From IMG/VR virus record IMGVR_UViG_3300012005_000005: DNA of 20,000 bases. One strand, given 5' to 3'. Below are positions 6,504 through 19,966 of this stretch, in pieces. Made by a program: the position numbers and the translations under genes. The stretch's first letter is position 1; every line of letters starts with the position of its first letter. The stretch is from an uncultured virus (IMG/VR IMGVR_UViG_3300012005_000005). Taxonomy: Duplodnaviria > Heunggongvirae > Uroviricota > Caudoviricetes. A model generated the notes under the pieces. The model saw only the letters and a program-made list of their open reading frames with translations. It was not told where the DNA came from and ran no database searches.

Positions 6504-6770
6504 TAAAATTTAGACACAGATTATTAACAAAGGTGAGAAAACGAAAGTCTACCCCTTACCCCTTAGAAGGAATAGACTTAAAATTTTCACCTGTTAGACA
6601 CGAGTTACTACCTGTAGGCTGTTGGTTACGCAAGTCTTGAAGAATACCAACATTTAAGAGAAAACCATTATACAATTTTACTTGTTCTTGTAGTGATGTT
6701 GGCTTACCATGTCCTAAAAAGAAAATGCAAACTTACTAAAATAATTTCAAATAACCAAATAAATTTTAAA

Positions 6771-7106
6771 ATGAGTAACAAAATCAAAGTGGATGAACTT
6801 ACCATAGATGGTACAGTTTATGTTCCAAAAGAATATGTAAAAGCAAGTTTTACAGGAGATGTAAAAATTGTAATTCTTCAACGTGGGTGGGTTTACATTG
6901 GAAGATTTTCAAGAATTGGAAATGATTGTAAGTTAGAAAATGCTTACAATATCCGCACATGGGGAACAACAAAAGGACTTGCTGAATTGGTAAATGGGGC
7001 TACTAATAATACGAAACTTGACAAGTGTGAAGGAATAGTGGAGTTTGATTGGTTAACAGTAGTTCATACTATCACCGTAAATAAAGAGAAATGGAGTCAA
7101 ATATAA
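6771..7106 (+). CDS. DUF6948-like small beta-barrel phage protein
   Basis: Motifs IVILQRGWVYIG and LENAYNIRTWGTTKGLAEL resemble, from memory, the phage family found upstream of Gly-X repeat genes; ATG at 6771 follows an A-rich leader. Confidence 0.6.
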   Translation: MSNKIKVDELTIDGTVYVPKEYVKASFTGDVKIVILQRGWVYIGRFSRIGNDCKLENAYNIRTWGTTKGLAELVNGATNNTKLDKCEGIVEFDWLTVVHTITVNKEKWSQI

Positions 7107-7417
7107 GAATAGGTGGTAATTTTGAAGAAAGCCAAAATACCTATGGCAATGGCAGTGGCGATGGCAATGGCTATGGCAATGGCAATGGCAATGGCAGTGG
7201 CTATGGCAGTGGCAGTGGCTATGGCAATGGCAGTGGCGATGGCAATGGCAGTGGCTATGGCAATGGCAGTGGCTATGGCAGTGGCGATGGCGATGGCAAT
7301 GGCAGTGGCTATGGCAATGGCAGTGGCTATGGCAATGGCAGTGGCTATGGCAATGGCAGTGGCGATGGCGATGGCAATGGCAGTGGCTATGGCAATGGCA
7401 ATGGCAGTGGCTATTAA
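7091..7417 (+). CDS. Glycine-rich (Gly-X)45 repeat protein, X = N/S/Y/D
   Basis: 18-aa unique leader followed by 45 G-X dipeptides; start overlaps the end of the upstream gene. Confidence 0.75.
   Translation: MESNIRIGGNFEESQNTYGNGSGDGNGYGNGNGNGSGYGSGSGYGNGSGDGNGSGYGNGSGYGSGDGDGNGSGYGNGSGYGNGSGYGNGSGDGDGNGSGYGNGNGSGY
7142..7414. repeat. Hexanucleotide tandem repeat GGC(AAT/AGT/TAT/GAT)
   Basis: Directly visible 6-nt periodicity with recurring 18-nt higher-order units. Confidence 0.95.
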
Positions 7418-7437: not shown

Positions 7438-7650
7438 ATGATAAAGAGATTATTCGCTGTTCCTGTACTTGTATTTTGTATATTACTTGCTGTTTTATAT
7501 ACACTTAGTTGTGTATGGTTTTTATTATGGATGATAACAGGCAAAACTTATTTTGAAAGCGTGGTCTGTTTCTTAACAGAAGTTTCTTTTCCTTTTTTCG
7601 GAATTATTGGAAGTGAAAAAAATTACTATCCTGACTACAAAGAAGAATAA
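7438..7650 (+). CDS. Small membrane protein (70 aa)
   Basis: Hydrophobic N-terminal segment. Confidence 0.65.
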   Translation: MIKRLFAVPVLVFCILLAVLYTLSCVWFLLWMITGKTYFESVVCFLTEVSFPFFGIIGSEKNYYPDYKEE

Positions 7651-7913
7651 AAAGTTTATTATGTTTGCTTTTGTGGTTTTTACTGTACTGTACACACTGA
7701 CAATGAGATAAAAAAGGGAATTTATTCTCTAATTTTCAATATGGCTAAGGTTATTTACAACGGTAAGAAATGGCTTAGGTTAATTGTAATGATACACTTT
7801 TAGTGTGTTCCTAACATCTAAAATCCTTTAATAATAGGTTATTCCTATAAAATGGAAGTAAAGGCTTATTATTTTGTATAAGGTGTGGGTGAAAGTTAAA
7901 TGTAATAATGGTT

Positions 7914-8001
7914 TGTCTTGTGGCGCAACTGGATAGCGCGCCATGCAGCCATGCAAAAGTATGGCTCATGGAGGTTGAAGGTTCAACTCCTTTCAAGACA
8001 A
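7914..8001 (+). ncRNA. tRNA-like RNA with canonical acceptor, D and T arms but an elongated anticodon arm and no 7-nt anticodon loop
   Basis: Acceptor TGTCTTG 7914-7920/CAAGACA 7994-8000; D arm GCGC-AACTGGATA-GCGC; T arm GAAGG-TTCAACT-CCTTT; CCATG 7941-7945/CATGG 7967-7971 encloses 21 nt that fold as AGCCATGC-AAAA-GTATGGCT. Confidence 0.85.
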
Positions 8002-8011
8002 CATGAATAAT

Positions 8012-8151
8012 GGGATTGTATAATACAAATGTCCAAAATTTGTATAATAGTGGCGGAGTTTACTACGTGTGACTCTAAAGGAAGATTAAAAAAACAACCG
8101 CAAGTTGAGAGTTATCTATCCGAATGGTGTGTTCGATTCCACCCAATCCTG
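8012..8151 (+). ncRNA. 140-nt tRNA-like RNA (acceptor stem plus T arm, expanded multi-hairpin interior)
   Basis: GGGATTG 8012-8018/CAATCCT 8144-8150, directly preceded by GGTGtG-TTCGATT-CCACC; internal hairpins 8023-8045 and 8048-8065. Confidence 0.65.
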
Positions 8152-8153
8152 CT

Positions 8154-8314
8154 AAATTAAACCTGCTTGAAATTAACAGTAGAATCGTCCTCTTAAAAGG
8201 CTTAATGCAGCTATCCAAATAGCGTTGTTTAATGGAGAGATAAAAAGATGAGAGTATTACTATCCACTGTTTTAGTCAGTTAAGTTATTCCGATGGTAAG
8301 GACAGGTTTAATTT
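8154..8314 (+). ncRNA. Rod-like structured RNA of about 160 nt (possibly 6S-like)
   Basis: Perfect 12-bp closing stem AAATTAAACCTG 8154-8165/CAGGTTTAATTT 8303-8314; inner AACAGT 8175-8180/ACTGTT 8266-8271; apical GCTAT-CCAA-ATAGC. Confidence 0.5.
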
Positions 8315-8427
8315 TTTAAATTCATTTCAGTGGCATAAACAAGTGCAATAATTCCAACGAATTATGAGTTAACGGCGGAGCGGCACAGTCGGCACGAATA
8401 CGCACCACTATTTTTAAATTTTTTCTT

Positions 8428-8727
8428 ATGAAAAGAAAAGTAAGTAGTTTATGGTATAAACTGTTCTCTTATGTAAATGGAGAGCATACTAAATATGAGT
8501 ATGTTAAACATTTTAAAGAACAATCCATTTTAACTGAAATAGAACTTAAACAGTTTAACCTATGGATGAAAAAGGTAGGAGTATCTAAGTTATATACGAC
8601 TTTTGTATCTATAGAAGATCCAAACATTATTTTAGATGTTCCTTCTATTGCTACACAACTAAAAATTGAAAGGATAAAGGAATGCCACAGGCAATATGAA
8701 AAATCTAAAGAATCAAATATGGGGTAG
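8428..8727 (+). CDS. Hypothetical protein (99 aa)
   Basis: ORF track; its TAG lies in the 5' acceptor strand of the tmRNA. Confidence 0.7.
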   Translation: MKRKVSSLWYKLFSYVNGEHTKYEYVKHFKEQSILTEIELKQFNLWMKKVGVSKLYTTFVSIEDPNIILDVPSIATQLKIERIKECHRQYEKSKESNMG

Positions 8728-9112
8728 AAAAGGCAATCGACTGCCAAGAATCAGATTTATAGGCACATAAGCAAAAAGTATGTTATCTGCTTACTCAAGA
8801 ATACATATAAAAATAAATGTAAACGATTTATCGAATACATCGCTGGAAAATGATGTTGACGCTATGTTAACCTCTCTTTTCCCTGTAGAATTGGAAATGG
8901 CTGCATAAGCAATCATAAGATTGTTCTAATTTCTATGGCTCAGTTGTTCGCCATGCCTTAGTTTAATACTTTGGTAAACTTATGACGCTTTTTTGTTAAT
9001 TAGTTGATGCATTAAATAAATTAACTATTGCTAATAAAAATTAGCTAAGATGTGTAAGAAAACTATGCTTTTTTATCTTGGCAAGACCAGGGTTCGACTC
9101 CCTGCTACTCCA
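8721..9112 (+). ncRNA. ssrA: tmRNA (SsrA), phage-encoded
   Basis: Acceptor GGGGTAG/CTACTCC with G3:U70 and discriminator A; T arm CAGGG-TTCGACT-CCCTG; P2 TGCCAAGA 8742-8749/TCTTGGCA 9076-9083; internal tag frame 8819-8908 after AAATAAAT reads VNDLSNTSLENDVDAMLTSLFPVELEMAA*. Confidence 0.95.
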
Positions 9113-9159
9113 CTACTCCACATTAAATGTGGTTATGTCCATACAATCATAATAATAAA

Positions 9160-9690
9160 ATGAAGACAAACACATTAAACAGAAAAGCAATTGAACACCT
9201 TCAAATTATTGGTTATAAATTAACTGACTCTGTAGAAAAAATAATTGATTCACCTTTTTTATTATTTACAGAAAATGAAATAAAGACTTGCTACTCTGCA
9301 AAGGAATTTAATAATTATGCAGGCAAATTAAAAACACAAGAGCAGCTTTTAAAACTTCGTCCAAAAAATGAGGTAAAAGAATTTTCTAACTTATCAAAAA
9401 GGGAACAAGAGTTTTATAAGTTACTTAACTTATTGAATAATGCAAAAAATAATAAAATAGCTGGTTATGATGTTTCTTGGACTATTCAAAAGAAAAGGTA
9501 TGCGGATTATCGTTGGGAAATTTTACCAATAAGCCCTTTCGCCTGTGGTTCCATTTCAATGGAACACTTAGGAATAGTTTTAAATTTTGCAAAAGAACAC
9601 CAGTGGCACAATATTTCAATTTCTTATACAAATTGGTCACAGGAAAAAGAAAGGTATGGAACTTACACACCCTGTATAATTATTTCTTAA
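9160..9690 (+). CDS. Hypothetical protein
   Basis: Track ORF 9127-9690; ATG at 9160 follows an A-rich leader. Confidence 0.75.
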   Translation: MKTNTLNRKAIEHLQIIGYKLTDSVEKIIDSPFLLFTENEIKTCYSAKEFNNYAGKLKTQEQLLKLRPKNEVKEFSNLSKREQEFYKLLNLLNNAKNNKIAGYDVSWTIQKKRYADYRWEILPISPFACGSISMEHLGIVLNFAKEHQWHNISISYTNWSQEKERYGTYTPCIIIS

Positions 9691-10610: not shown

Positions 10611-11080
10611 TGGCAATATATTTTAAAGGAGGAGAATCAGCAAAAACTTTAGAAGAGTTATTCTGTTTAGGCTTTACCTTTAGGAGTCATTTTGATTATT
10701 TTGGAGATATTAAAAAGTTTGTTCCAACATTTCTTGATGCAGAGTGCACTATTCCACAAGATTTTGGTTCACGTAGGAGTTTCTATGATCTATTAAAAAT
10801 AGCTAAAACATATTTTCCTAAAACAACAGAAGAAGGTATTGCTTATTTTCTTTTTTATAAATTAGAAAATATGTTTGCAAGATACTGTCCTGATATAGAC
10901 AGGGTGGTTTTCTATGTAAGAAAAAACCCTTTTACTAATTGGTGTAATGATTCTATAGAATTTGTTCCTGAAGATACAGAAGATCCTACAGGAATTTCTT
11001 TTTCTAAAGTAAAAAAATTAGCGGAGAATGTACAAAATAGACGTGAAAGCTCATGTAGACCGAGAAGGCATTCATTTTGA
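10610..11080 (+). CDS. Hypothetical protein (156 aa)
   Basis: ORF track. Confidence 0.8.
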   Translation: MAIYFKGGESAKTLEELFCLGFTFRSHFDYFGDIKKFVPTFLDAECTIPQDFGSRRSFYDLLKIAKTYFPKTTEEGIAYFLFYKLENMFARYCPDIDRVVFYVRKNPFTNWCNDSIEFVPEDTEDPTGISFSKVKKLAENVQNRRESSCRPRRHSF

Positions 11081-11566: not shown

Positions 11567-11932
11567 ATGAAAAAAATCTTTGGGGTATATGGTACTCTTC
11601 GCAGAGGCTATGGAAATAACAGGTGTTTAGGAGATGCTAAGTTCTTAGGAGAATTTAAAACAGAACCAAACTACACCCTCTTTGATGGGGGGTTTCCGGT
11701 GTGTGAAAGAGGTGGAAATACCTCTATTCATATAGAACTATTTGAAACAGATAACCCTGAAATAATTTCTGATGTTAACTCATTAGAAGGCTGTACAGGA
11801 ATAAAAGGCCATCCAGCTAATTGGTATGACGTGGACTATATAAACAGTCCCTACGGAATAGCAACCATATTTGTTATGAACAAAGGAACAAGTGGCAGAA
11901 ACAAAATTTTAGAAACTGGTAAATGGAACTAA
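11567..11932 (+). CDS. Gamma-glutamylcyclotransferase (GGCT/AIG2-like)
   Basis: N-terminal VYGTLRRG..N motif and LEG carrying the catalytic Glu. Confidence 0.9.
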   Translation: MKKIFGVYGTLRRGYGNNRCLGDAKFLGEFKTEPNYTLFDGGFPVCERGGNTSIHIELFETDNPEIISDVNSLEGCTGIKGHPANWYDVDYINSPYGIATIFVMNKGTSGRNKILETGKWN

Positions 11933-11933
11933 A

Positions 11934-12158
11934 ATGACTATAAAAATAACTAAAAGAAAACTGGGAATTGGTTTGTGGGTACTCCTAATCTTAGGGTTTT
12001 TATTCTTTATTACTTATCCGTTTTATGTTAAGTTTGGATGGGGTTTCCTTATTATTCCAGGAAGTGTTATTTGTTTTGCTCTTTTATGTTTGTTAGCAGA
12101 CTATTTAACAAGCTCAGTGGGTCCTTATGGAACAGATAATTGGCATGACTATGAGTAA
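11934..12158 (+). CDS. Two-TM membrane protein (74 aa)
   Basis: Two hydrophobic segments. Confidence 0.7.
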   Translation: MTIKITKRKLGIGLWVLLILGFLFFITYPFYVKFGWGFLIIPGSVICFALLCLLADYLTSSVGPYGTDNWHDYE

Positions 12159-13146
12159 AATATATTACAAAGCATCTGAATTTTACGATGATATTAAAAT
12201 TCTAAGGGAAGAAGGTGTACACAGGGGTATAAACGTAGGCTTCTCAACATTAGATGATTTCTATAATAAGAAATTAGGGCGTTGTACATATATCTATTCT
12301 GCTCCTTTTTCAGGTAAGAGTCAATTTGCTTTTGAGCTTTCTATCAATTCTGCTTCTGCTTATAATTGGATTACTGCTGTATACTCACCTGAGAGTGGAA
12401 CCAAAGAGGAGATAGTTGCAAAGCTTGTGTTTATGATAACAGGAAAACAGTTATATGCTAAACACAAAAATTCAATAGATGAAGAACTGTTGAAAAGTGC
12501 CATGTCTTTTATAAATGATCACTTTATATTTATTGACCCAGATAATCCTCATGTAGATGATATATATGAAAATGCAATGCTTACACTTTTAGATTTTTAC
12601 AGATGTGTTAAGCAAGCAGAGTCATATTATGGTATCTCTATTCAAGAAACATTAATTGATCCTTTTAATGAACTTGCTCATGATTTTTCTAAAGATGAAG
12701 GTAGACAAGATCTTTACATAGAAAGAATGTTAGGGATTGCTCGTAGAGATGCTAAAATAAATCTTAGACATAACACTATAGTAACACACGTAGTAGACCA
12801 ACAAATAGAACGCAAAGGAGATATAAGATATTATCCTCCTGCCATGCCAAGAGAATTAGCAGGTGGACAAGCATGGTATCGTAAAGGAGATATGATGGCA
12901 TCATTATGGAGACCTCCATTTGGTTTAAAAGATGCAGAAGGCAGAGATTGGGAAGAAAATGAAATGCACGTTATAATTCAAAAAGTAAAGCCTGAATATT
13001 GTGGTAAAAGAGGAACTGTACCTCTTTTCTTTGATGTAGATACAGGCAGATACTATGAAAAGATAAATGGAAAAAACTATTATGCTTTTCAATATCAAAA
13101 ACATATAGGTGCATTAGAAAAACAACATCAAATTTTAATAAAATAA
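12151..13146 (+). CDS. SF4 (DnaB/T7 gp4-like) replicative DNA helicase without a primase domain
   Basis: GFSTLD, Walker A APFSGKS, YSPE, Walker B LIDPFNEL, H, IQKVK...G motifs; start at 12151 overlaps the upstream stop. Confidence 0.9.
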   Translation: MSKIYYKASEFYDDIKILREEGVHRGINVGFSTLDDFYNKKLGRCTYIYSAPFSGKSQFAFELSINSASAYNWITAVYSPESGTKEEIVAKLVFMITGKQLYAKHKNSIDEELLKSAMSFINDHFIFIDPDNPHVDDIYENAMLTLLDFYRCVKQAESYYGISIQETLIDPFNELAHDFSKDEGRQDLYIERMLGIARRDAKINLRHNTIVTHVVDQQIERKGDIRYYPPAMPRELAGGQAWYRKGDMMASLWRPPFGLKDAEGRDWEENEMHVIIQKVKPEYCGKRGTVPLFFDVDTGRYYEKINGKNYYAFQYQKHIGALEKQHQILIK

Positions 13147-13182
13147 CTGCCTTCAAAGGTTGTTAGTTTGGCTACTAAATAT

Positions 13183-13210
13183 AAGCCCTGTCTTTACAGG
13201 GCTTTTTTAT
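13183..13210 (+). terminator. Rho-independent terminator
   Basis: AAGCCCTG-TCTTTA-CAGGGCTT followed by a T run. Confidence 0.85.
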
Positions 13211-13339
13211 TTGGAATAGCTGATAGCGGGTGCGAGTTACATGGCTGCGGTAGCTGTCCAAAGGCATAAATCCAAATCAACCTCCCGAAGGTCGGAAGAT
13301 ACTCAAGAGCAATATCGGGCAAGGTAACTTATTCCAAAT
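13209..13339 (+). ncRNA. Candidate multi-stem structured RNA of about 130 nt
   Basis: ATTTGGAATA 13209-13218/TATTCCAAAT 13330-13339; AGTTAC 13235-13240/GTAACT 13324-13329; inner hairpins; GC-richer than its flanks. Confidence 0.6.
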
Positions 13340-13356
13340 TTTTTAAATAAACTCTT

Positions 13357-13596
13357 ATGGATTATAAACTAAAGAAGATAGCTAAAATAGGAGACAGTAT
13401 GATGTTAGAGTTAGGTATAGTGGAGCCTAATATTGTAAGAGATTGGTATACAAAAGATTTTGTTTATATAGAAACTTCTATTTTAGTATATAGAAGAAGA
13501 ATAAATGATGAGGCACAAAAGAAAAGTGAAGAAGTTGAAAAGATTAATGATGTTAAAAATCGTAGCCAGTTATCAAACGTTGTACCTTTAATTTAA
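13357..13596 (+). CDS. Hypothetical protein (79 aa)
   Basis: ORF track. Confidence 0.7.
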   Translation: MDYKLKKIAKIGDSMMLELGIVEPNIVRDWYTKDFVYIETSILVYRRRINDEAQKKSEEVEKINDVKNRSQLSNVVPLI

Positions 13597-13606
13597 AATC
13601 AAGCAA

Positions 13607-14323
13607 ATGAAACTACGCTCAATGATAGGAGATGATTGGTTTATTTTTTTCCAATCATTTTTAACATCAGGATTCTTTAAAACATTAGAAGCAGGTCTTT
13701 TAGAAGAAATTAAAAAAGAAAATTCTGTTTTAGTTCCTTCACTGTCTTATGTGTTTGAACCATTTAAAAGCTGTTCTTTAAAAGATTTAAAAGTAGTTAT
13801 ACTTAATGATATGCCTTTTAAAGATTTAAAAGCAAATGATGGGCTTGCTTTTTCTATTCTTCCTACTGTAGGCTTAATGAGTTCACCATTAGAAGGTATG
13901 GTGTTTTGGGAAGGTATAGAATTAGATATGTATGATGGTTTTCATATTCAAAAAGACTATGACCATCATAAATTAGCAGGACAAGGGGTTTTATTATTAA
14001 ACTGTTCACCCACACTATCTTATATAGATAACAAAACAGATAAACCTTATTGGGAAACTCATTATGATTTATGGAAACACTTCATAAAATATGTTATTCA
14101 CACTATCAGTAAAAACTGTACAGGTGTAATATTTGTCACTGTAGGTATTAAACCAAGAGAGTATATAAGCTCTATTATAAAATCTGATAACTATTTGCTA
14201 TCTGTAACACATCCGAGAAACTTTGTTCATTCAAGAGATACATGGGATTGTGCAGGAGCATTTTCCACAATAAATAAAATACTAAAAGCAAATAATAATT
14301 TAGAAATCACTTGGTTAAATTAA
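13607..14323 (+). CDS. Uracil-DNA glycosylase family-1-like protein with divergent active-site motifs
   Basis: LKVVIL, ANDGLAFS, QGVLLLN, H..W..F and HP motifs in UNG order; GQDPY is replaced by NDMPF. Confidence 0.8.
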   Translation: MKLRSMIGDDWFIFFQSFLTSGFFKTLEAGLLEEIKKENSVLVPSLSYVFEPFKSCSLKDLKVVILNDMPFKDLKANDGLAFSILPTVGLMSSPLEGMVFWEGIELDMYDGFHIQKDYDHHKLAGQGVLLLNCSPTLSYIDNKTDKPYWETHYDLWKHFIKYVIHTISKNCTGVIFVTVGIKPREYISSIIKSDNYLLSVTHPRNFVHSRDTWDCAGAFSTINKILKANNNLEITWLN

Positions 14324-14329
14324 AAAATT

Positions 14330-14680
14330 ATGGCAGAAATTACAGGTACACAATGCTGCGCTCTATTCCAAATAAGCGACATAGGTAATGATTCTACATT
14401 AAGAGAGATTGAAAACGCAATTTATGATATTATAGATGATGATGATAATCATGGAAGAGCAGCTTTTGTGATAACAATGAAAGAAGAAACTAATTTAGTA
14501 AAAAACCTAAAAACATTAGGCTTTAAGAAAATCACTACCTTTCAAAGAAAGTATATGTATGCCCAAACAGGTCTTACAATGTGGCTCAAAAAACTTAATT
14601 ACAGAAAAGAATATGACCAATACGTAAAAGATCAAGAAGAGGATGATGAAGGCTGCTATCTTGCAAACGATGACTATTAA
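14330..14680 (+). CDS. Hypothetical protein, possibly a minimal GNAT-like fold, with an acidic tail
   Basis: TQCCAL near the N-terminus; LKTLGFKKI...LTMWLK resembles the GNAT C-terminal motif (weak). Confidence 0.6.
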   Translation: MAEITGTQCCALFQISDIGNDSTLREIENAIYDIIDDDDNHGRAAFVITMKEETNLVKNLKTLGFKKITTFQRKYMYAQTGLTMWLKKLNYRKEYDQYVKDQEEDDEGCYLANDDY

Positions 14681-14701
14681 TAACAAAAACAAATAATATA
14701 T

Positions 14702-15538
14702 ATGACTAAGTTAATTAACAATCCTTTGTTAGGAACGGATTTTGAATTGTTTCTAAAGCACAAAGAAACTAATGAGATAGTATCTGCTGAGGGGCTTATA
14801 CAAGGAACTAAATATGCTCCTTTTAACTTTGATAAATCCAATCAGTTCTTTTCTACTTCTCTTGATAATGTACTTGCAGAATGTTGTATTCCTCCTGTAA
14901 ATAATGTAGAAGGGTGGCTTGCTAACATAAAAAAATCAAGAGATTATATAGAATCAATACTCCCTGCACATTTATGTACAGCAGCTACTCCTGCGGCTGT
15001 TTTAGATGCTAAGTGGCTTTCCACTATTAACGCTAAAACATTTGGATGCGATCCTGACTTCAACGCTTGGCTAAAATTAGCTAATGAAAGCCCAAAAGCA
15101 GACAATCCAAATCTTAGAAGTGCGGGTGCTCATATTCATGTAGGATATGATTTGCACCTTCTTGAGGATGGTGAAGTTGATTGGGAAAAGAAAATTTCTC
15201 TTGGAGAGAATATTATTAAAGCAATGGATTTGTTTGTTGGTGTACCTTCTGTTATTCAAGAACCTGAGAATGATAGAAAGAAGCTATACGGAAAAGCAGG
15301 TGCTTTCAGATTTAAAGACTATGGTGTAGAATATCGTACAGCGAGCAATTATTATTTAGAAAGTGAAAAGCTTACAAAATGGGTATTTGGAGCAACCATA
15401 AAAGCTTTGGATTTTGTAAATGAGGAACGCATAGAAGAAGTAGATAGTGTTGGAGGCTTTATTCAGTCTGCTATAAATGAAAATGATAAGAACTTAGCAT
15501 GGCAACTTATAAGACAATTTGATTTGGAATTGGCATAA
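14702..15538 (+). CDS. phiEco32-like COOH-NH2 ligase type 2 (glutamine synthetase-like amidoligase)
   Basis: GTDFELFL, DNVLAE, GCDPDFNAW, RSAGAHIHVG and RKKLYGKAGAFRFKDYGVEYRT.SN motifs. Confidence 0.9.
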   Translation: MTKLINNPLLGTDFELFLKHKETNEIVSAEGLIQGTKYAPFNFDKSNQFFSTSLDNVLAECCIPPVNNVEGWLANIKKSRDYIESILPAHLCTAATPAAVLDAKWLSTINAKTFGCDPDFNAWLKLANESPKADNPNLRSAGAHIHVGYDLHLLEDGEVDWEKKISLGENIIKAMDLFVGVPSVIQEPENDRKKLYGKAGAFRFKDYGVEYRTASNYYLESEKLTKWVFGATIKALDFVNEERIEEVDSVGGFIQSAINENDKNLAWQLIRQFDLELA

Positions 15539-15572
15539 ATCTTAAATTAGTGTAATTAACAAATATTAAATA

Positions 15573-16415
15573 ATGAAGAGACTAATTGTATTTTCACGCC
15601 ATCCTTCTCATAATATGTTAAGGGAGGCAGGTTTGCTTTTTGAAAAAAGGACACTCATAAGATTTGGCTCAGAAACAATACCAAAACGTAAGTTTGATGT
15701 AGAGATAAATTCTCCTAACGCTGTTAAAGATTCTGCTAATAAACTACTAATGAAGCAGGATTTTACGAGGGCGGGTGTGAAAACAACAGATTGGTATATT
15801 TGGTTAGAAGAGGGTTTAGTAAGACCTGTTGGCATTGAAAACGGATGGATGTTAACCACAGATGGTTGTGAATTGAATAGATTGAATTATCCTATAATAG
15901 CTAAACATATTTATGGAAGCAGGGGAACAGGAAATTATAAACTTGATGATGAAATAACTTTAAAAAACTGGATTTACAAACCTAACAGAGATTTATCTAA
16001 ATTCATATTTGAAGAGTTCTTTAAGAAAGGTCGTGAATATAGACTTCATGTAACAAAGGATGGGTGTTTTTACACTTGCCGAAAACTGCTTAAAAATGAT
16101 GCAGTAGAACGCTGGCACAGACATTCAAGTAATTGTATATGGCTTTTAGAAACTCATCCTAAGTTTGATAAGCCTGTTAATTGGGAATTGATAGAAGCAG
16201 ATTGTGTGAAGGCATTAGAGGCGATTGGCGCAGATGTTTTAGCTTTTGATGTAAAGGTACAGTTTAGTAAAAATAAGAATGGGAAGGTACGTGAAAATCC
16301 CAAATGGGTGATAATTGAATCATGCTCTGCTCCTTCATTCGGTGACATCACTCTTCAAAAATATATTGAAGAAATTCCTAAAATTTATAAAAGTAAAACA
16401 GATGGTAAGTTATAA
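15573..16415 (+). CDS. ATP-grasp ligase (RimK-like, phiEco32 type)
   Basis: NKL..K, YPIIAK...GSRGTG, FEEF, EYRLHV, FDVK and IIESCSAPS motifs. Confidence 0.85.
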   Translation: MKRLIVFSRHPSHNMLREAGLLFEKRTLIRFGSETIPKRKFDVEINSPNAVKDSANKLLMKQDFTRAGVKTTDWYIWLEEGLVRPVGIENGWMLTTDGCELNRLNYPIIAKHIYGSRGTGNYKLDDEITLKNWIYKPNRDLSKFIFEEFFKKGREYRLHVTKDGCFYTCRKLLKNDAVERWHRHSSNCIWLLETHPKFDKPVNWELIEADCVKALEAIGADVLAFDVKVQFSKNKNGKVRENPKWVIIESCSAPSFGDITLQKYIEEIPKIYKSKTDGKL

Positions 16416-16962
16416 ATTGTTTTCAGGAAAAAGACTTGTTAAAGACCATGAACAAACAACTTGTTTTGTTTACATTACCCAATTTAGTTTTTCAAAAGAA
16501 ATAGACAAAGTAGTTATTTATCCACACTTGTATCAGATGCAAAATTTTACAGAAGAAGAGATTAAAATATGGATAAAGACTATTAACCTTTGGGGGTTTA
16601 AGTGCCACTACGATGGCAAAGATAATCTTCGTTACTATTTTAGTATAGATTTAAAAAAGATGTATAACAAACCACATTTAACATCTACGCTAATATTAAT
16701 TAGATATTTGTGGGAACAAGAAGAAATATTGAAAAAATATTTTTCTCTTAGAGAAGATAGGAGAAACAAATTTAAAGCAATGTTAGAGGCTCATAATATT
16801 AACGTGCCTTATATTAATTCTAACCACACTCTAAGAGATTATAGAAAACAAACACTTACTTCTCACAAAGAAATACTAAAAAGGATAAAAGAATGTGAAA
16901 TACCTGTTCATGGAGAATCATCCAGGTATGATAATTTAATAAGTAATTTATGGAGAAACTAA
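16402..16962 (+). CDS. Hypothetical protein within the ligase cluster
   Basis: ATG at 16402 overlaps the end of the ATP-grasp gene (track ORF starts at 16315). Confidence 0.75.
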   Translation: MVSYKLFSGKRLVKDHEQTTCFVYITQFSFSKEIDKVVIYPHLYQMQNFTEEEIKIWIKTINLWGFKCHYDGKDNLRYYFSIDLKKMYNKPHLTSTLILIRYLWEQEEILKKYFSLREDRRNKFKAMLEAHNINVPYINSNHTLRDYRKQTLTSHKEILKRIKECEIPVHGESSRYDNLISNLWRN

Positions 16963-16979
16963 TCAATAAAAAATAGAAT

Positions 16980-17618
16980 ATGAATAAAAGAAAAATCTAT
17001 GTTGTAGGAAACTCATTTGAGTACGCAAATTGGATGGAAGGCAAACTAACTAATGTGCTTGAAGAATCAGATTTAATTGTATTTACAGGTGGTGAAGATG
17101 TTTCTCCTGTTTTATATGGAGAAAAACCACATCCCACCACAGGTTTTAATATTAGAAGGGATACTAATGAAATGCAGATTTACTGTAAAGCACTTCAGCA
17201 CAAAAAACATATTATAGGAATCTGTAGAGGTTCTCAATTTTTATGTGTAATGAATGGTGGTAAACTTGTACAGCACCAAAACAATCCTAAATACATACAT
17301 CCTATCTCTCTTAGAGACGGAACAGTGATTAATATTACTTCTACACATCATCAAGCTGCTTATCCTTTTAATCTTTCAAAAGAAGATTATATTATAATAG
17401 GGTGGGGAGATGGATTGTCAGAGTTCCATTTAAATGGATATGGAGAAGAACTCAGTGACATTCCTAATTTTAAAGAATGTGAAATAGTGTATTACCCGCA
17501 CACTAAATGTTTAGGTATTCAAGGGCATCCTGAGCATGAAAATTATAAATATGAAGATGGCCTGCCATATCTTCAAAACTTATTAAATGATTTTTTAAAC
17601 GATAAAATAAAAGTATGA
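16980..17618 (+). CDS. Class I glutamine amidotransferase / peptidase C26 (gamma-glutamyl hydrolase-like)
   Basis: FTGGEDVSP..YGE, GICRGSQ nucleophile Cys, STHHQ and QGHPE triad motif. Confidence 0.92.
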   Translation: MNKRKIYVVGNSFEYANWMEGKLTNVLEESDLIVFTGGEDVSPVLYGEKPHPTTGFNIRRDTNEMQIYCKALQHKKHIIGICRGSQFLCVMNGGKLVQHQNNPKYIHPISLRDGTVINITSTHHQAAYPFNLSKEDYIIIGWGDGLSEFHLNGYGEELSDIPNFKECEIVYYPHTKCLGIQGHPEHENYKYEDGLPYLQNLLNDFLNDKIKV

Positions 17619-19966
17619 TAACATTATTTGCAAGTCTTTATTTTCTTTCATATATATTACGAATAGTTCGTGGTGGTAAGTTAAACACATTGTCTTGTGG
17701 GTTATTTGGATTTTGCGGCTCTGAACCACCTGATATGAACAAGATTAAAATCTTAGGAATCTTGAATGAGATAAGAGGCACGCACTCTTGTGGGATATTT
17801 TATAATGGAAAAATTATAAAAGGTGTTGGTAAAGAAGCAATATTTACTAACTTTTTAACATATAACACTATTAATGCTGTAAAAGGAGCTAATATTTTTA
17901 TAGGGCATACAAGATCTGCTACTTATGGGGAACATTCGGAGGAAAACGCTCATCCATTTTCAGTAAATGATGAGTTAGTATTAGCTCATAATGGAACTCT
18001 TACTAATTCTTGGGCTATGTGTAATAAATATAACATAGACCATACCAAAATAAGAGTGGACAGTTTAGCACTTGCTTGCTTATTACATCAGGAAGGGGAA
18101 AAGATTTTAAATGAGTATAAAGGAGCGGCTGCACTACTTTATTGTAAAAAAGATAGTCCTGATAGCTTATTTGTATATCATGGATCGTCTAAGAAAAAAC
18201 CTAATGAAAAGGAAGAAGAGGAAAGACCTTTATATTATATGAAAACTAAAACAGGTTTTTACTTTAGCAGCTTAGTGTATGCTTTAGAAGTTATAAGAGA
18301 AAATGAAAGAGAGTATCCACTTCTTGTGCCTTATAACAGAGTTTTAAAGTTTACTAATAATAAACAAGAAAAGTCTACTATTATAGTAGACAGGGGAGAT
18401 TGTAATGTTGTATATCCCTCGCCAGTTTTTAATAAAAATGCGGATATTAGAACTTGTGTTGGCTATCCTAAAGCGTCTGACTACAACGGTAAAGGTACTG
18501 CTGTTTTGGCTTCAAGTAAAGAAGAGGAGTCACTAATTTGGAGGGAATCTTTGCCTAAGAAATCTTTTGATACTGAGTGTGACTTCTTATATTTTCATAA
18601 AGGAAGGTACTGGAAAGTTGAAAATACTAAAGTGGCTCAGGTCACTACTTATGCAGATGGTTGTTTGAAGCTTTCAAAGAAAAGCGGGCATATAAATGAA
18701 GATGGGATAGCTTTTTACTTTTATAAAGGAGTGTTATTAAAAGGTTCAGGCTCATTAGATATTGTAAACCTTCCTGAAACTCAGGAAAAGTTGAAAAAAA
18801 TGAACTTTGCTGCAATAATAAGCAAATATTCAAGGTATCCTGTTACAAATCTTGAGGATGAAAGTACGTTTGTACCTATATCAGATGTTAGGTTCTGCTG
18901 GTATAGCAATGGCAGACCAGAAAAATCTGGATTCACTCCTCTATTTTCTAATAGAACTTATACCTTTAAAGAAGGAAGGCTGGTAAAAATAACATGTCAT
19001 GATAAATTAGAAGAACCTTTGATAATTGAGCCTGTAATAAAAAAAGAAGGGGCTCCTGTAATAAAAAAAGAAAAATCAGATATTGTAAAGCAAGCTACAC
19101 TCTCTTTCTCTACAGACAAAGAAAAAGACAAAAAAGAAAACTTAGCTGCTTTAGAGGAAGAGTTGAAATTCTTTAATAAGAGAGGTTGGATAACTGAGGA
19201 AACTGTACAAGCACATATTTCTTCTGTAGGAGAAAATGCTTTAGATTCTTATATACGAGATGCAAGTTGGGCGCAGTCAGAAGCTACCATATGTAAAAAA
19301 GATGTAGATGAAAGAATATCCACAATATTTACAGATGCTGTGTTAAATCATACTTCTATATTAGAAGAGCTTCCGAATATTGGATGCTTTACTGATTATT
19401 TAGAAGATGCCATAGAAAGCCAACAAACTGTAAACGCAATCATAAGAGATGTTAAAAAGAATGGAACAACTGCTTCAAGAAAAGCAATTTCTTCTGATTA
19501 TGAACAAAACTCATTAGGAATTTGGGTTCCCAAAAATAAAGATGATTTGCCCTTTGATGGAAAAGTAATAGAACTTTGTAAAGTATGTGCAGGATATGGT
19601 TTAGATTTAGATGATGAAAGGATTCTTTGTGATCATTGTGATGGCACAGGCAAAGAACCATTAGTTAAACTATTTTCTGATCCAGAATTAAACAAAGAAC
19701 CTTTTCTAACAGAATTAGAGGAAGAAGTTATTTTAGAAGAGGCTTATGCCAAAGAGCTTTTAGAAGAGTTTGTAGAAACAATTAGAAGTTTTGACTCTAC
19801 AATAAATTCGTTGGAAGAACTGAAAAAAACAGAATTAGCAACTGATGCTTGTAAAATATTAAATGAAGAAATACTAATTATTAAGAGACGACTTACGGAA
19901 GTAGGAAGCAGATTTGGATTAGAAAAATTCACAAACCAAATAAATAAAAAATCATTACTATGTTAA
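17615..19966 (+). CDS. Class II (Ntn) glutamine amidotransferase domain fused to a long C-terminal region with a CxxCxGxG zinc finger and acidic helical tail
   Basis: CGLFG, RGTHSCG, GHTRSAT, NAHPF, HNGTL and VDS motifs; CKVCAGYG...CDHCDGTG. Confidence 0.88.
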   Translation: MITLFASLYFLSYILRIVRGGKLNTLSCGLFGFCGSEPPDMNKIKILGILNEIRGTHSCGIFYNGKIIKGVGKEAIFTNFLTYNTINAVKGANIFIGHTRSATYGEHSEENAHPFSVNDELVLAHNGTLTNSWAMCNKYNIDHTKIRVDSLALACLLHQEGEKILNEYKGAAALLYCKKDSPDSLFVYHGSSKKKPNEKEEEERPLYYMKTKTGFYFSSLVYALEVIRENEREYPLLVPYNRVLKFTNNKQEKSTIIVDRGDCNVVYPSPVFNKNADIRTCVGYPKASDYNGKGTAVLASSKEEESLIWRESLPKKSFDTECDFLYFHKGRYWKVENTKVAQVTTYADGCLKLSKKSGHINEDGIAFYFYKGVLLKGSGSLDIVNLPETQEKLKKMNFAAIISKYSRYPVTNLEDESTFVPISDVRFCWYSNGRPEKSGFTPLFSNRTYTFKEGRLVKITCHDKLEEPLIIEPVIKKEGAPVIKKEKSDIVKQATLSFSTDKEKDKKENLAALEEELKFFNKRGWITEETVQAHISSVGENALDSYIRDASWAQSEATICKKDVDERISTIFTDAVLNHTSILEELPNIGCFTDYLEDAIESQQTVNAIIRDVKKNGTTASRKAISSDYEQNSLGIWVPKNKDDLPFDGKVIELCKVCAGYGLDLDDERILCDHCDGTGKEPLVKLFSDPELNKEPFLTELEEEVILEEAYAKELLEEFVETIRSFDSTINSLEELKKTELATDACKILNEEILIIKRRLTEVGSRFGLEKFTNQINKKSLLC

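Follow-up and report, generated by a model that had tools for sequence, protein, structure and literature searches.

A compact array of non-decoding tRNA-derived RNAs and a tmRNA in an uncultured soil phage

An uncultured virus of the Caudoviricetes (IMG/VR record IMGVR_UViG_3300012005_000005) raises the question what a phage might gain from RNAs that are shaped like transfer RNAs (tRNAs) and have no anticodon with which to decode. We analysed 20,000 nucleotides (nt) of this record, hereafter the window, in which such RNAs are followed by a transfer-messenger RNA (tmRNA) between positions 7914 and 9113, all on the plus strand. A preliminary description of the region had proposed an array of five folded RNAs, three of which keep the tRNA top half, i.e. 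the acceptor stem and the T arm, and had suggested that they act as mimics of tRNAs. The core of this proposal is real, namely the tmRNA, a tRNA-Arg whose anticodon arm is sealed and an RNA with a tRNA top half, and its periphery was overstated. From our point of view, the array is probably an island of stable RNAs like the one annotated for phage T5, matured by enzymes of the host and not used for decoding.

The tRNA-derived units and the tmRNA

The first unit (unit 1; 7914-8001, 88 nt) had been described as a tRNA without an anticodon, and this assignment is borne out. It matches the Rfam tRNA model (RF00005) from end to end with 47.5 bits (cut-off 29), and its fold (z = -4.58) was equalled in stability by 0/200 shuffled sequences. 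A perfect acceptor of 7 base pairs (bp; 7914-7920/7994-8000) is followed by a D arm (7923-7939; stem GCGC/GCGC, loop AACUGGAUA), an outer anticodon stem CCAUG/CAUGG (7941-7945/7967-7971), a bulged C (7946) and an 8-bp extension helix (7947-7954/7959-7966) with the cap AAAA (7955-7958), then by a variable loop of 5 nt (7972-7976), a canonical T arm (7977-7993) and a discriminator A (8001), CCA not being encoded. Its 29 base pairs include no mismatch, the bases U8, A14, G18G19 and G53-C61 as well as the T loop are intact, and its G+C content is 50% as compared to about 30% for the genome. In the Rfam alignment, 20 nt stand where six loop positions belong: the 21 nt between the strands of the anticodon stem fold as the 8-bp helix with its AAAA cap, and a 7-nt loop with U33 is lacking. 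Because the anticodon loop is replaced by this capped helix, unit 1 is unable to decode as it stands.

The ancestry of unit 1 can be traced. Its 21-nt D arm occurs exactly in 32 loci of a species-genome collection, and among the 15 loci examined, 13 are tRNA-Arg genes, one is a tRNA-Ser gene and one gave no call. The variable-loop sequence AGGTTG of unit 1, which lay outside the search pattern, is common to the tRNA-Arg matches, and the variable loop together with the T arm is found exactly in two viral contigs, namely in the tRNA-Arg(ACG) of a 359-kb phage and in one tRNA-Thr. Since the D arm (with A20), the variable loop and the T arm all match tRNA-Arg genes, unit 1 is, as judged from its sequence, the body of a tRNA-Arg in which the anticodon arm has been sealed. 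Arginyl-tRNA synthetase reads the anticodon bases C35 and U/G36, both of which are absent from unit 1.

One could speculate that unit 1 is nevertheless a working tRNA from which a 14-nt intron is removed before decoding. ARAGORN misses unit 1 at default settings and, with introns allowed, calls a tRNA-Gly(GCC) with a 14-nt intron and an A at position 33, and a tRNA-Leu(UAA) on a tmRNA-bearing contig (L009:1449-1555) has a 21-nt hairpin inserted into its anticodon, between positions 35 and 36. Orthologues of the latter on L010 and L026 lack the insertion and differ from it in their acceptor stems by three compensatory pairs, so that selection may still act on the interrupted gene. However, every contiguous 14-nt deletion in unit 1 leaves A33 and none restores U33, for which reason unit 1 is not a plausible spliced tRNA. 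In addition, the body is that of a tRNA-Arg and not of a tRNA-Gly, and we know of no bacterial protein splicing endonuclease for such inserts, all of which makes decoding after splicing highly improbable. A group I intron was also considered and discarded, given a 14-nt insert as compared to a core of about 200 nt or more, and no intron family matched anywhere in the window (E up to 1).

The second unit (unit 2; 8012-8151, 140 nt) resembles a tRNA in its top half. A 7-bp acceptor GGGAUUG/CAAUCCU (8012-8018/8144-8150) with a G1-U72 wobble is followed by U8 and A9, and its 3' strand directly abuts a T arm GGUG(U)G-UUCGAUU-CCACC (8126-8143) of 5 bp that includes G53-C61 and a bulged U at 8130. 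The discriminator is a G (8151), and CCA, a D arm and an anticodon arm in the tRNA position are lacking. Directly after A9, the interior opens with an 11-bp hairpin (8019-8049; loop GUCCAAA), and two further hairpins follow. A strict scan for top halves, which required G53 and C61, at most one bulge, a 7-bp acceptor and a span of no more than 160 nt, found only units 1 and 2 on both strands of the 20 kb, as compared to a mean of 0.029 hits per shuffled window, with at least one hit in 27/1000 and at least two in 2/1000 shuffles. A looser scan yields many hits by chance (mean 1.42 per shuffled window). By the strict scan, the top half of unit 2 is far beyond chance, and the two elements of this kind are neighbours on the same strand. 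The loop GUCCAAA was tentatively compared to a tRNA-Trp anticodon loop, a pattern that is common by chance; in an element of another phage the same heptamer forms a stem strand instead of a loop, and this reading was dropped.

The third and largest RNA is a phage tmRNA (8721-9113), as had been claimed, which is called by ARAGORN and matches Rfam RF00023 over the full length of the model (44.7 bits, E 4.9e-16). Its acceptor GGGGUAG/CUACUCC carries G3-U70 and A73, the alanine identity, CCA is again not encoded, and the T arm CAGGG-UUCGACU-CCCUG (9088-9104) abuts the acceptor. The tag frame predicted by ARAGORN (8819-8908) comprises 29 codons, VNDLSNTSLENDVDAMLTSLFPVELEMAA, begins at the resume codon GUA and ends MAA-stop. 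The tRNA-like domain and the resume region align strongly to the model and the pseudoknots poorly, while helix P2 pairs. By its acceptor, T arm and tag frame, the sequence at 8721-9113 is that of a true tmRNA of alanine identity whose tag is long, and with it one member of the array has, by its identity, the role in ribosome rescue that the preliminary description had considered.

A co-occurring strain provides further evidence for the tmRNA. The window stretch is present in four DNA runs of one soil study, and in two of them (X1, X2) a variant strain was seen and assembled as contigs that cover 8348-8421, 8614-8900 and 9089-9121 and nothing over 7914-8330. Provided that the two contigs of this strain belong to one genome, its change C8745>T is compensated by G9080>A on the opposite strand of P2, C8741>T makes a pair from a C-A mismatch, and the C>T change at 9082 gives a G-U pair. 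The resume codon of the variant is GCA. The covered part of its tag frame (8819-8900) shows six substitutions and no insertion or deletion (indel), whereas the 98 nt upstream contain three indels; the neighbouring DNA differs from the window by about 12% (34 differences and four indels in 287 nt).

More distant relatives of the tmRNA were found in a metagenome scan that used its T arm and acceptor strand as a query with one base left free. The 18 loci obtained comprise 11 full tmRNAs, five head-only elements, one locus cut by a contig end and one tRNA-Ala. The full-length relatives (68.6-110 bits in Rfam) have the same acceptor GGGGUAG/CUACUCC and encode tags of 18-28 amino acids, e.g. AEDIMSIPTSLTRGESVFARNAELALAA, that end LAA, VAA or IAA. 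Their contigs have 35-39% G+C, and PHROG phage families were detected on 8/16 proteins tested (contigs L009, L010, L015, L018, L020 and L025), these eight coming from four contigs. Closest to the tmRNA of the window by sequence are those of L015 and L020.

Comparison with known phage RNAs

The closest architectural counterpart of the array is found in phage T5. In the T5 record (AY543070.1), RNA1 (144 nt) and RNA2 (125 nt) are annotated as 'tRNA-like stable RNA with unknown functions', RNA3 as 'putative tRNA-like RNA' and RNAI, RNAIII, RNAIV, RNA2H and RNAX as 'stable RNA with unknown functions'. RNA1, RNAI and RNAIII are spaced by 0-4 nt inside the tRNA region, in which one tRNA is marked as a pseudogene. 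When folded, RNA1 takes the form of a tRNA body whose anticodon arm holds a large insert, RNA2 has an acceptor and T arm around a foreign interior, and in RNAIII, RNAIV and RNA2H the two ends pair as long stems. Unit by unit, this arrangement corresponds to that of the window. The window array is alike in that non-decoding RNAs of about 70-170 nt are tightly packed and in that units 1 and 2 have an acceptor together with a T arm; the stem-closed layout of the three T5 RNAs named last resembles that of a third candidate (unit 3; 8154-8314). The distances of 10, 2 and 14 nt between the first four units agree with the packing of 2-14 nt noted in the preliminary description. By analogy, such packing would be the look of a co-processed cluster of the tRNA type, the layout in T5 being the same.

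The two arrays also differ. The T5 RNAs stand among some two dozen ordinary tRNAs, whereas ARAGORN and Rfam found no ordinary decoding tRNA in the 20-kb window. The earlier statement that a decoding tRNA is lacking thus holds for the window and does not extend to the rest of the phage contig of at least 121,587 nt. A related record (G001; 42 kb), which begins at window position 10892, is also without a tRNA. The window has a tmRNA, in contrast to the examined stretch of T5, and the host group is different, the helicase of the window being nearest to those of Flavobacterium and Riemerella phages. In phage T4, the stable RNAs 'species 1' and 'species 2' of about 120-140 nt reportedly lie in the tRNA cluster and are co-transcribed and processed with the tRNAs, their function being unknown.

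A second comparison is provided by an unrelated phage lineage. The T arm of unit 2 (minus the bulge) together with its acceptor strand was found exactly in five viral contigs of one lineage, whose records include L071:1225-1679, L072, L073, L066-L070 and G002-G006. One member is a complete genome of 49,118 nt with terminal repeats that has no protein in common with the window at E up to 1e-3. Each contig holds 3-5 tandem elements of 69-122 nt without an anticodon, in which an acceptor GGUU[CG]UG/CA[CG]AACC, an A[AC]AGG motif as in the 5' region of tmRNA and a variable body are followed by a canonical T arm and a discriminator A; the acceptor contains U3-A70 and therefore lacks alanine identity. 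In this lineage, ARAGORN found no tRNA, the Rfam tRNA model gave only 25-27 bits and thus less than its cut-off, the tmRNA model gave 24-31 bits for the heads of these mini RNAs, and no full tmRNA was detected. Across ten distinct mini RNA sequences, the acceptor pair 5-68 is C-G in five and G-C in five, the T-stem pair 50-64 is U-A in five and G-C in five, and the T-stem pair 51-63 is G-C in seven and U-A in three. Because of these compensatory changes, we conclude that selection keeps anticodon-less top-half RNAs in at least one other phage lineage. Together with the window, these arrays suggest that tRNA top halves without an anticodon recur in phages.

Phage-encoded tmRNAs as such are known (passages in PMC4131195), also from huge phages (PMC7162821), and those of Bxz1-group mycobacteriophages, Bacillus phage G and huge phages are, like that of the window, full tmRNAs with alanine identity and a tag frame. 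The most frequent length of a tmRNA tag is given as 10 amino acids in a passage of PMC11915505. The tmRNA of the window differs from this usual form by its tag of 29 codons and belongs with a metagenomic family that shares its acceptor GGGGUAG/CUACUCC and has tags of 18-28 amino acids.

A head-only phage form is also on record. For mycobacteriophage DS6A, passages in PMC4131195 and PMC11915505 describe a tmRNA that consists of the tRNA-like domain only and lacks the coding sequence, and head-only tmRNA is reported there to inhibit the tmRNA of the host, perhaps by titrating SmpB. Units 1 and 2 are similar to it as phage RNAs that keep the tRNA-like top half without an anticodon. However, they lack G3-U70 (having U3-A70 and G3-C70, respectively) and any match to the tmRNA model, and unit 1 retains the full D arm of the tRNA-Arg type. 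Head-only elements of 81 nt were also among the relatives of the window tmRNA (L012:887-967 on the minus strand, L014, L016, L017 and L022 (61% G+C)); they have the acceptor of the window tmRNA with G3-U70 and a hairpin-closed P2, and score 56-57 bits against the Rfam tmRNA model.

The Y RNA-like YrlA, a partner of Ro60/TROVE proteins, shares with the array the combination of a non-decoding RNA with a tRNA-like module, and a TROVE gene lies near the related tmRNA of L015. In contrast, the array has no Rfam match of this kind at E up to 10, and no TROVE gene is found among the window proteins. The ends of YrlA form the Ro-binding stem and not an acceptor. On L015 itself, TROVE (Ro60-like) and RNase H-like proteins are encoded just upstream of the tmRNA (138-1682), and a Y RNA could be located in the 476-nt gap that follows the TROVE gene. 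Our literature search retrieved no primary paper on short phage tRNA introns, phage tRNA-like decoys or the stable RNAs of T4 and T5.

Possible roles of the array

If the array is, as we favour, a host-matured stable-RNA island, its RNAs would be transcribed rightward together with a downstream gene for a 99-amino-acid protein and excised by the tRNA-maturation enzymes of the host, with RNase P acting at the 5' ends, followed by 3' trimming and CCA addition, the latter being assumed because none of the array RNAs encodes CCA. The products would accumulate as stable L-shaped RNAs, among which the tmRNA would serve ribosome rescue with host SmpB, and the island may include a third, stem-closed RNA. 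Units 1 and 2, tRNA-derived RNAs that, as the preliminary description had correctly noted, keep the top half and are unable to decode, would act, if at all, via these top halves. Rather than decoding, the role that we favour for them would be to occupy readers of the acceptor and T arm such as SmpB, enzymes or toxins that modify the CCA end, or processing enzymes.

Several results weigh against such an island. No sequence similarity between the window array and the T5 RNAs was found by blastn, so that the likeness to T5 is architectural only, and no RNA sequencing run is listed as holding the window stretch. Syntenic searches found no relative covering 7914-8330, which leaves units 1-3 without support from conservation or covariation. 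The tmRNA scores 2.3 bits under the Rfam cut-off of 47, and its pseudoknot region aligns poorly and with low posterior probability. For unit 2, which had been described as tRNA-like, the acceptor and T arm stand, but no tRNA or tmRNA model gave a match with the E limit raised to 10, and as a whole the unit folds no better than shuffles (z = -1.52). The folds of two further units of the preliminary description, 8154-8314 (unit 3) and 8329-8409 (unit 5), are no better than or close to those of shuffled sequences (z = -0.96 and z = -0.83, respectively), and their description as folded RNAs found no statistical support. Finally, GCCATGCA recurs in unit 1 as an exact tandem copy, which makes up the 5' strand of the extension, and the 3' strand has a near-copy as well. 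This tandem copy makes a duplication the likely origin of the extension, as far as the sequence can tell, and leaves room for a pseudogene, in that unit 1 could be a recent duplication in a dying gene.

Taken further, units 1 and 2 could both be functionless leftovers of an earlier cluster of tRNAs next to a tmRNA that still works, with a duplication having wrecked the anticodon arm of the tRNA-Arg and a second tRNA having lost its body. One or two slippage events would give the copies seen in unit 1, the interior of unit 2 fits no model, units 3 and 5 resemble ordinary spacer, conservation was seen in no relative, and a tRNA pseudogene is marked in the T5 record as well. However, unit 1 has kept its mismatch-free pairs and all bases for tertiary contacts while the neighbouring DNA varies by about 12% between strains, its G+C content stands well above that of the genome, and without selection one would hardly expect two complementary duplications that give a perfect helix. 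In another phage, moreover, comparable RNAs are kept by compensatory change. We therefore regard decay as a doubtful explanation, albeit one to be taken seriously, and the stable-RNA island as the probable one.

Since the elements are placed between the upstream gene block and the unit of open reading frame (ORF) and tmRNA, all on one strand, it can also be imagined that they act in cis as sites for RNase P and 3'-end cutting, like the t-elements of plant mitochondria, and thereby define and stabilise the ends of neighbouring transcripts, including the release of the tmRNA and of the mRNA for the 99-amino-acid protein. RNase P recognises the acceptor/T-arm half, which is what the elements offer. 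However, two adjacent elements and a possible third exceed the need of one cut site, and the T5 counterparts are annotated as stable RNAs, which renders a role as mere processing marks unlikely.

Phage tRNAs can counter tRNA-cleaving defences, and the preliminary description had proposed an anti-defence role in which the top-half mimics soak up tRNA-directed defence effectors of the host. Indirect evidence for such decoys is that three RNAs keep just the acceptor/T-arm half and that a head-only tmRNA reportedly inhibits host tmRNA (passages in PMC4131195 and PMC11915505). Anticodon nucleases such as PrrC, RloC and PARIS would act on the anticodon loop, and a decoy for these is unlikely because the units have none; plausible targets would be limited to effectors directed at the CCA end or at the elbow. 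Protein family searches recognised no defence or anti-defence gene beside the array. On balance, we consider a decoy function improbable.

One could go a step further and speculate that the non-decoding mimics and the long-tag tmRNA form one module that takes over host factors for the elbow and the CCA end (SmpB, EF-Tu, the CCA enzyme and toxins that modify the CCA end). We consider this a long shot. If true, the module would steer ribosome rescue towards the tmRNA of the phage or weaken defences directed at tRNA ends, the mimic arrays of the 49-kb phage would represent a convergent or shared strategy, and the T5 'stable RNAs of unknown function' would gain a first function. The window alone adds an example and not a mechanism, and it represents an island of the T5 type rather than a new kind of element. 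What it does add is the presence of a T5-like architecture in a very different, uncultured soil phage, joined to a tmRNA with no ordinary tRNA nearby, and one array member with a traceable tRNA-Arg origin.

Remaining units, searches and gene setting

Unit 3 (161 nt) is a weak candidate for a stem-closed RNA. Its only notable feature is an inverted repeat whose arms (8154-8165/8303-8314) pair over 12 bp without a mismatch and so close the unit, with a T run behind them, and a closing stem of this length was reached by 20/1000 shuffles of the 777-nt region in which it lies. Unit 5 is a G+C-rich stretch upstream of the 99-amino-acid ORF and is unsupported as a folded RNA; the related strain shows six differences and two gaps at 8348-8421, a divergence similar to that of neighbouring coding DNA. 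The whole region 7651-8427 (777 nt) contains zero ORFs of at least 50 amino acids on the plus strand. Another stretch, about 760 nt long (60-820), is likewise poor in ORFs and has patches of higher G+C content; it may hold another RNA and gave no Rfam match at E up to 1.

The searches for relatives of the array used several handles. In blastn, 7600-9200 and 7914-8151 gave nothing relevant among 50,697 GenBank phage records, exact 21-24-mers of the 3' ends of unit 1 and the tmRNA had zero matches in viral contigs, and a spurious minus-strand ORF over unit 1 led to no candidate. As anchors, the 187-amino-acid ORF at 9127-9690 returned no relative locus, and an alignment of the 99-amino-acid ORF none in the metagenome or the viral contigs. 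The helicase returned three loci, one of which begins downstream of the array, while the other two (40% identity) carry no tRNA and no tmRNA, and the ORF at 6693-7106 returned seven loci that share only this gene and are without tRNA or tmRNA.

The protein encoded at 8428-8727 (99 amino acids) has homologues of 77% and 61% identity and is thus conserved. It has no match in Pfam or PHROG, and its structural models are of low confidence, with a predicted local distance difference test score (pLDDT) of 58 in AlphaFold and a predicted template modelling score (pTM) of 0.27 in the Atlas. An identical protein is recorded on a contig of 121,587 nt, which implies a phage contig of at least this size and thus a large phage. 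The stop codon of the ORF (8725-8727) falls inside the first 7 nt, i.e. the acceptor strand, of the tmRNA; if RNase P matured a transcript that contains both, the mRNA would be left without its stop codon. In the two relatives, the protein ends three residues earlier, before the tmRNA. At the other end of the tmRNA, its last 8 nt, TACTCCAC, are repeated directly after it (9106-9121), and the contig of the variant strain has yet another CTACTCCAC a little past the repeated end.

With respect to expression signals, the Bacteroidota-type -7 box TANNTTTG is not enriched in the window (46 found vs 36 expected), and scans for sigma-70 promoters and terminators gave hits at chance level or below. A G+C-richer tandem repeat upstream of the array (7091-7417) is open in two plus frames (GNGSGY-type and AMAV-type) and in a minus frame (HCHS-type), its sole match being a weak, sub-threshold one to the TrAA12-like family of Pfam.

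The window as a whole is phage DNA of about 30% G+C, the plus strand of which carries nearly all ORFs. The genes recognised encode an HNH endonuclease, a helicase, with about 30% identity to its nearest relatives in the Flavobacterium and Riemerella phages, and a cluster of COOH-NH2 ligase, ATP-grasp, amidotransferase and gamma-glutamyl cyclotransferase proteins. The latter cluster (11567-19966) is of the peptide-modification type and comprises a gamma-glutamyl cyclotransferase, a phiEco32-like COOH-NH2 ligase, a RimK-like ATP-grasp protein, class I and class II glutamine amidotransferases and a fusion protein of 783 amino acids.

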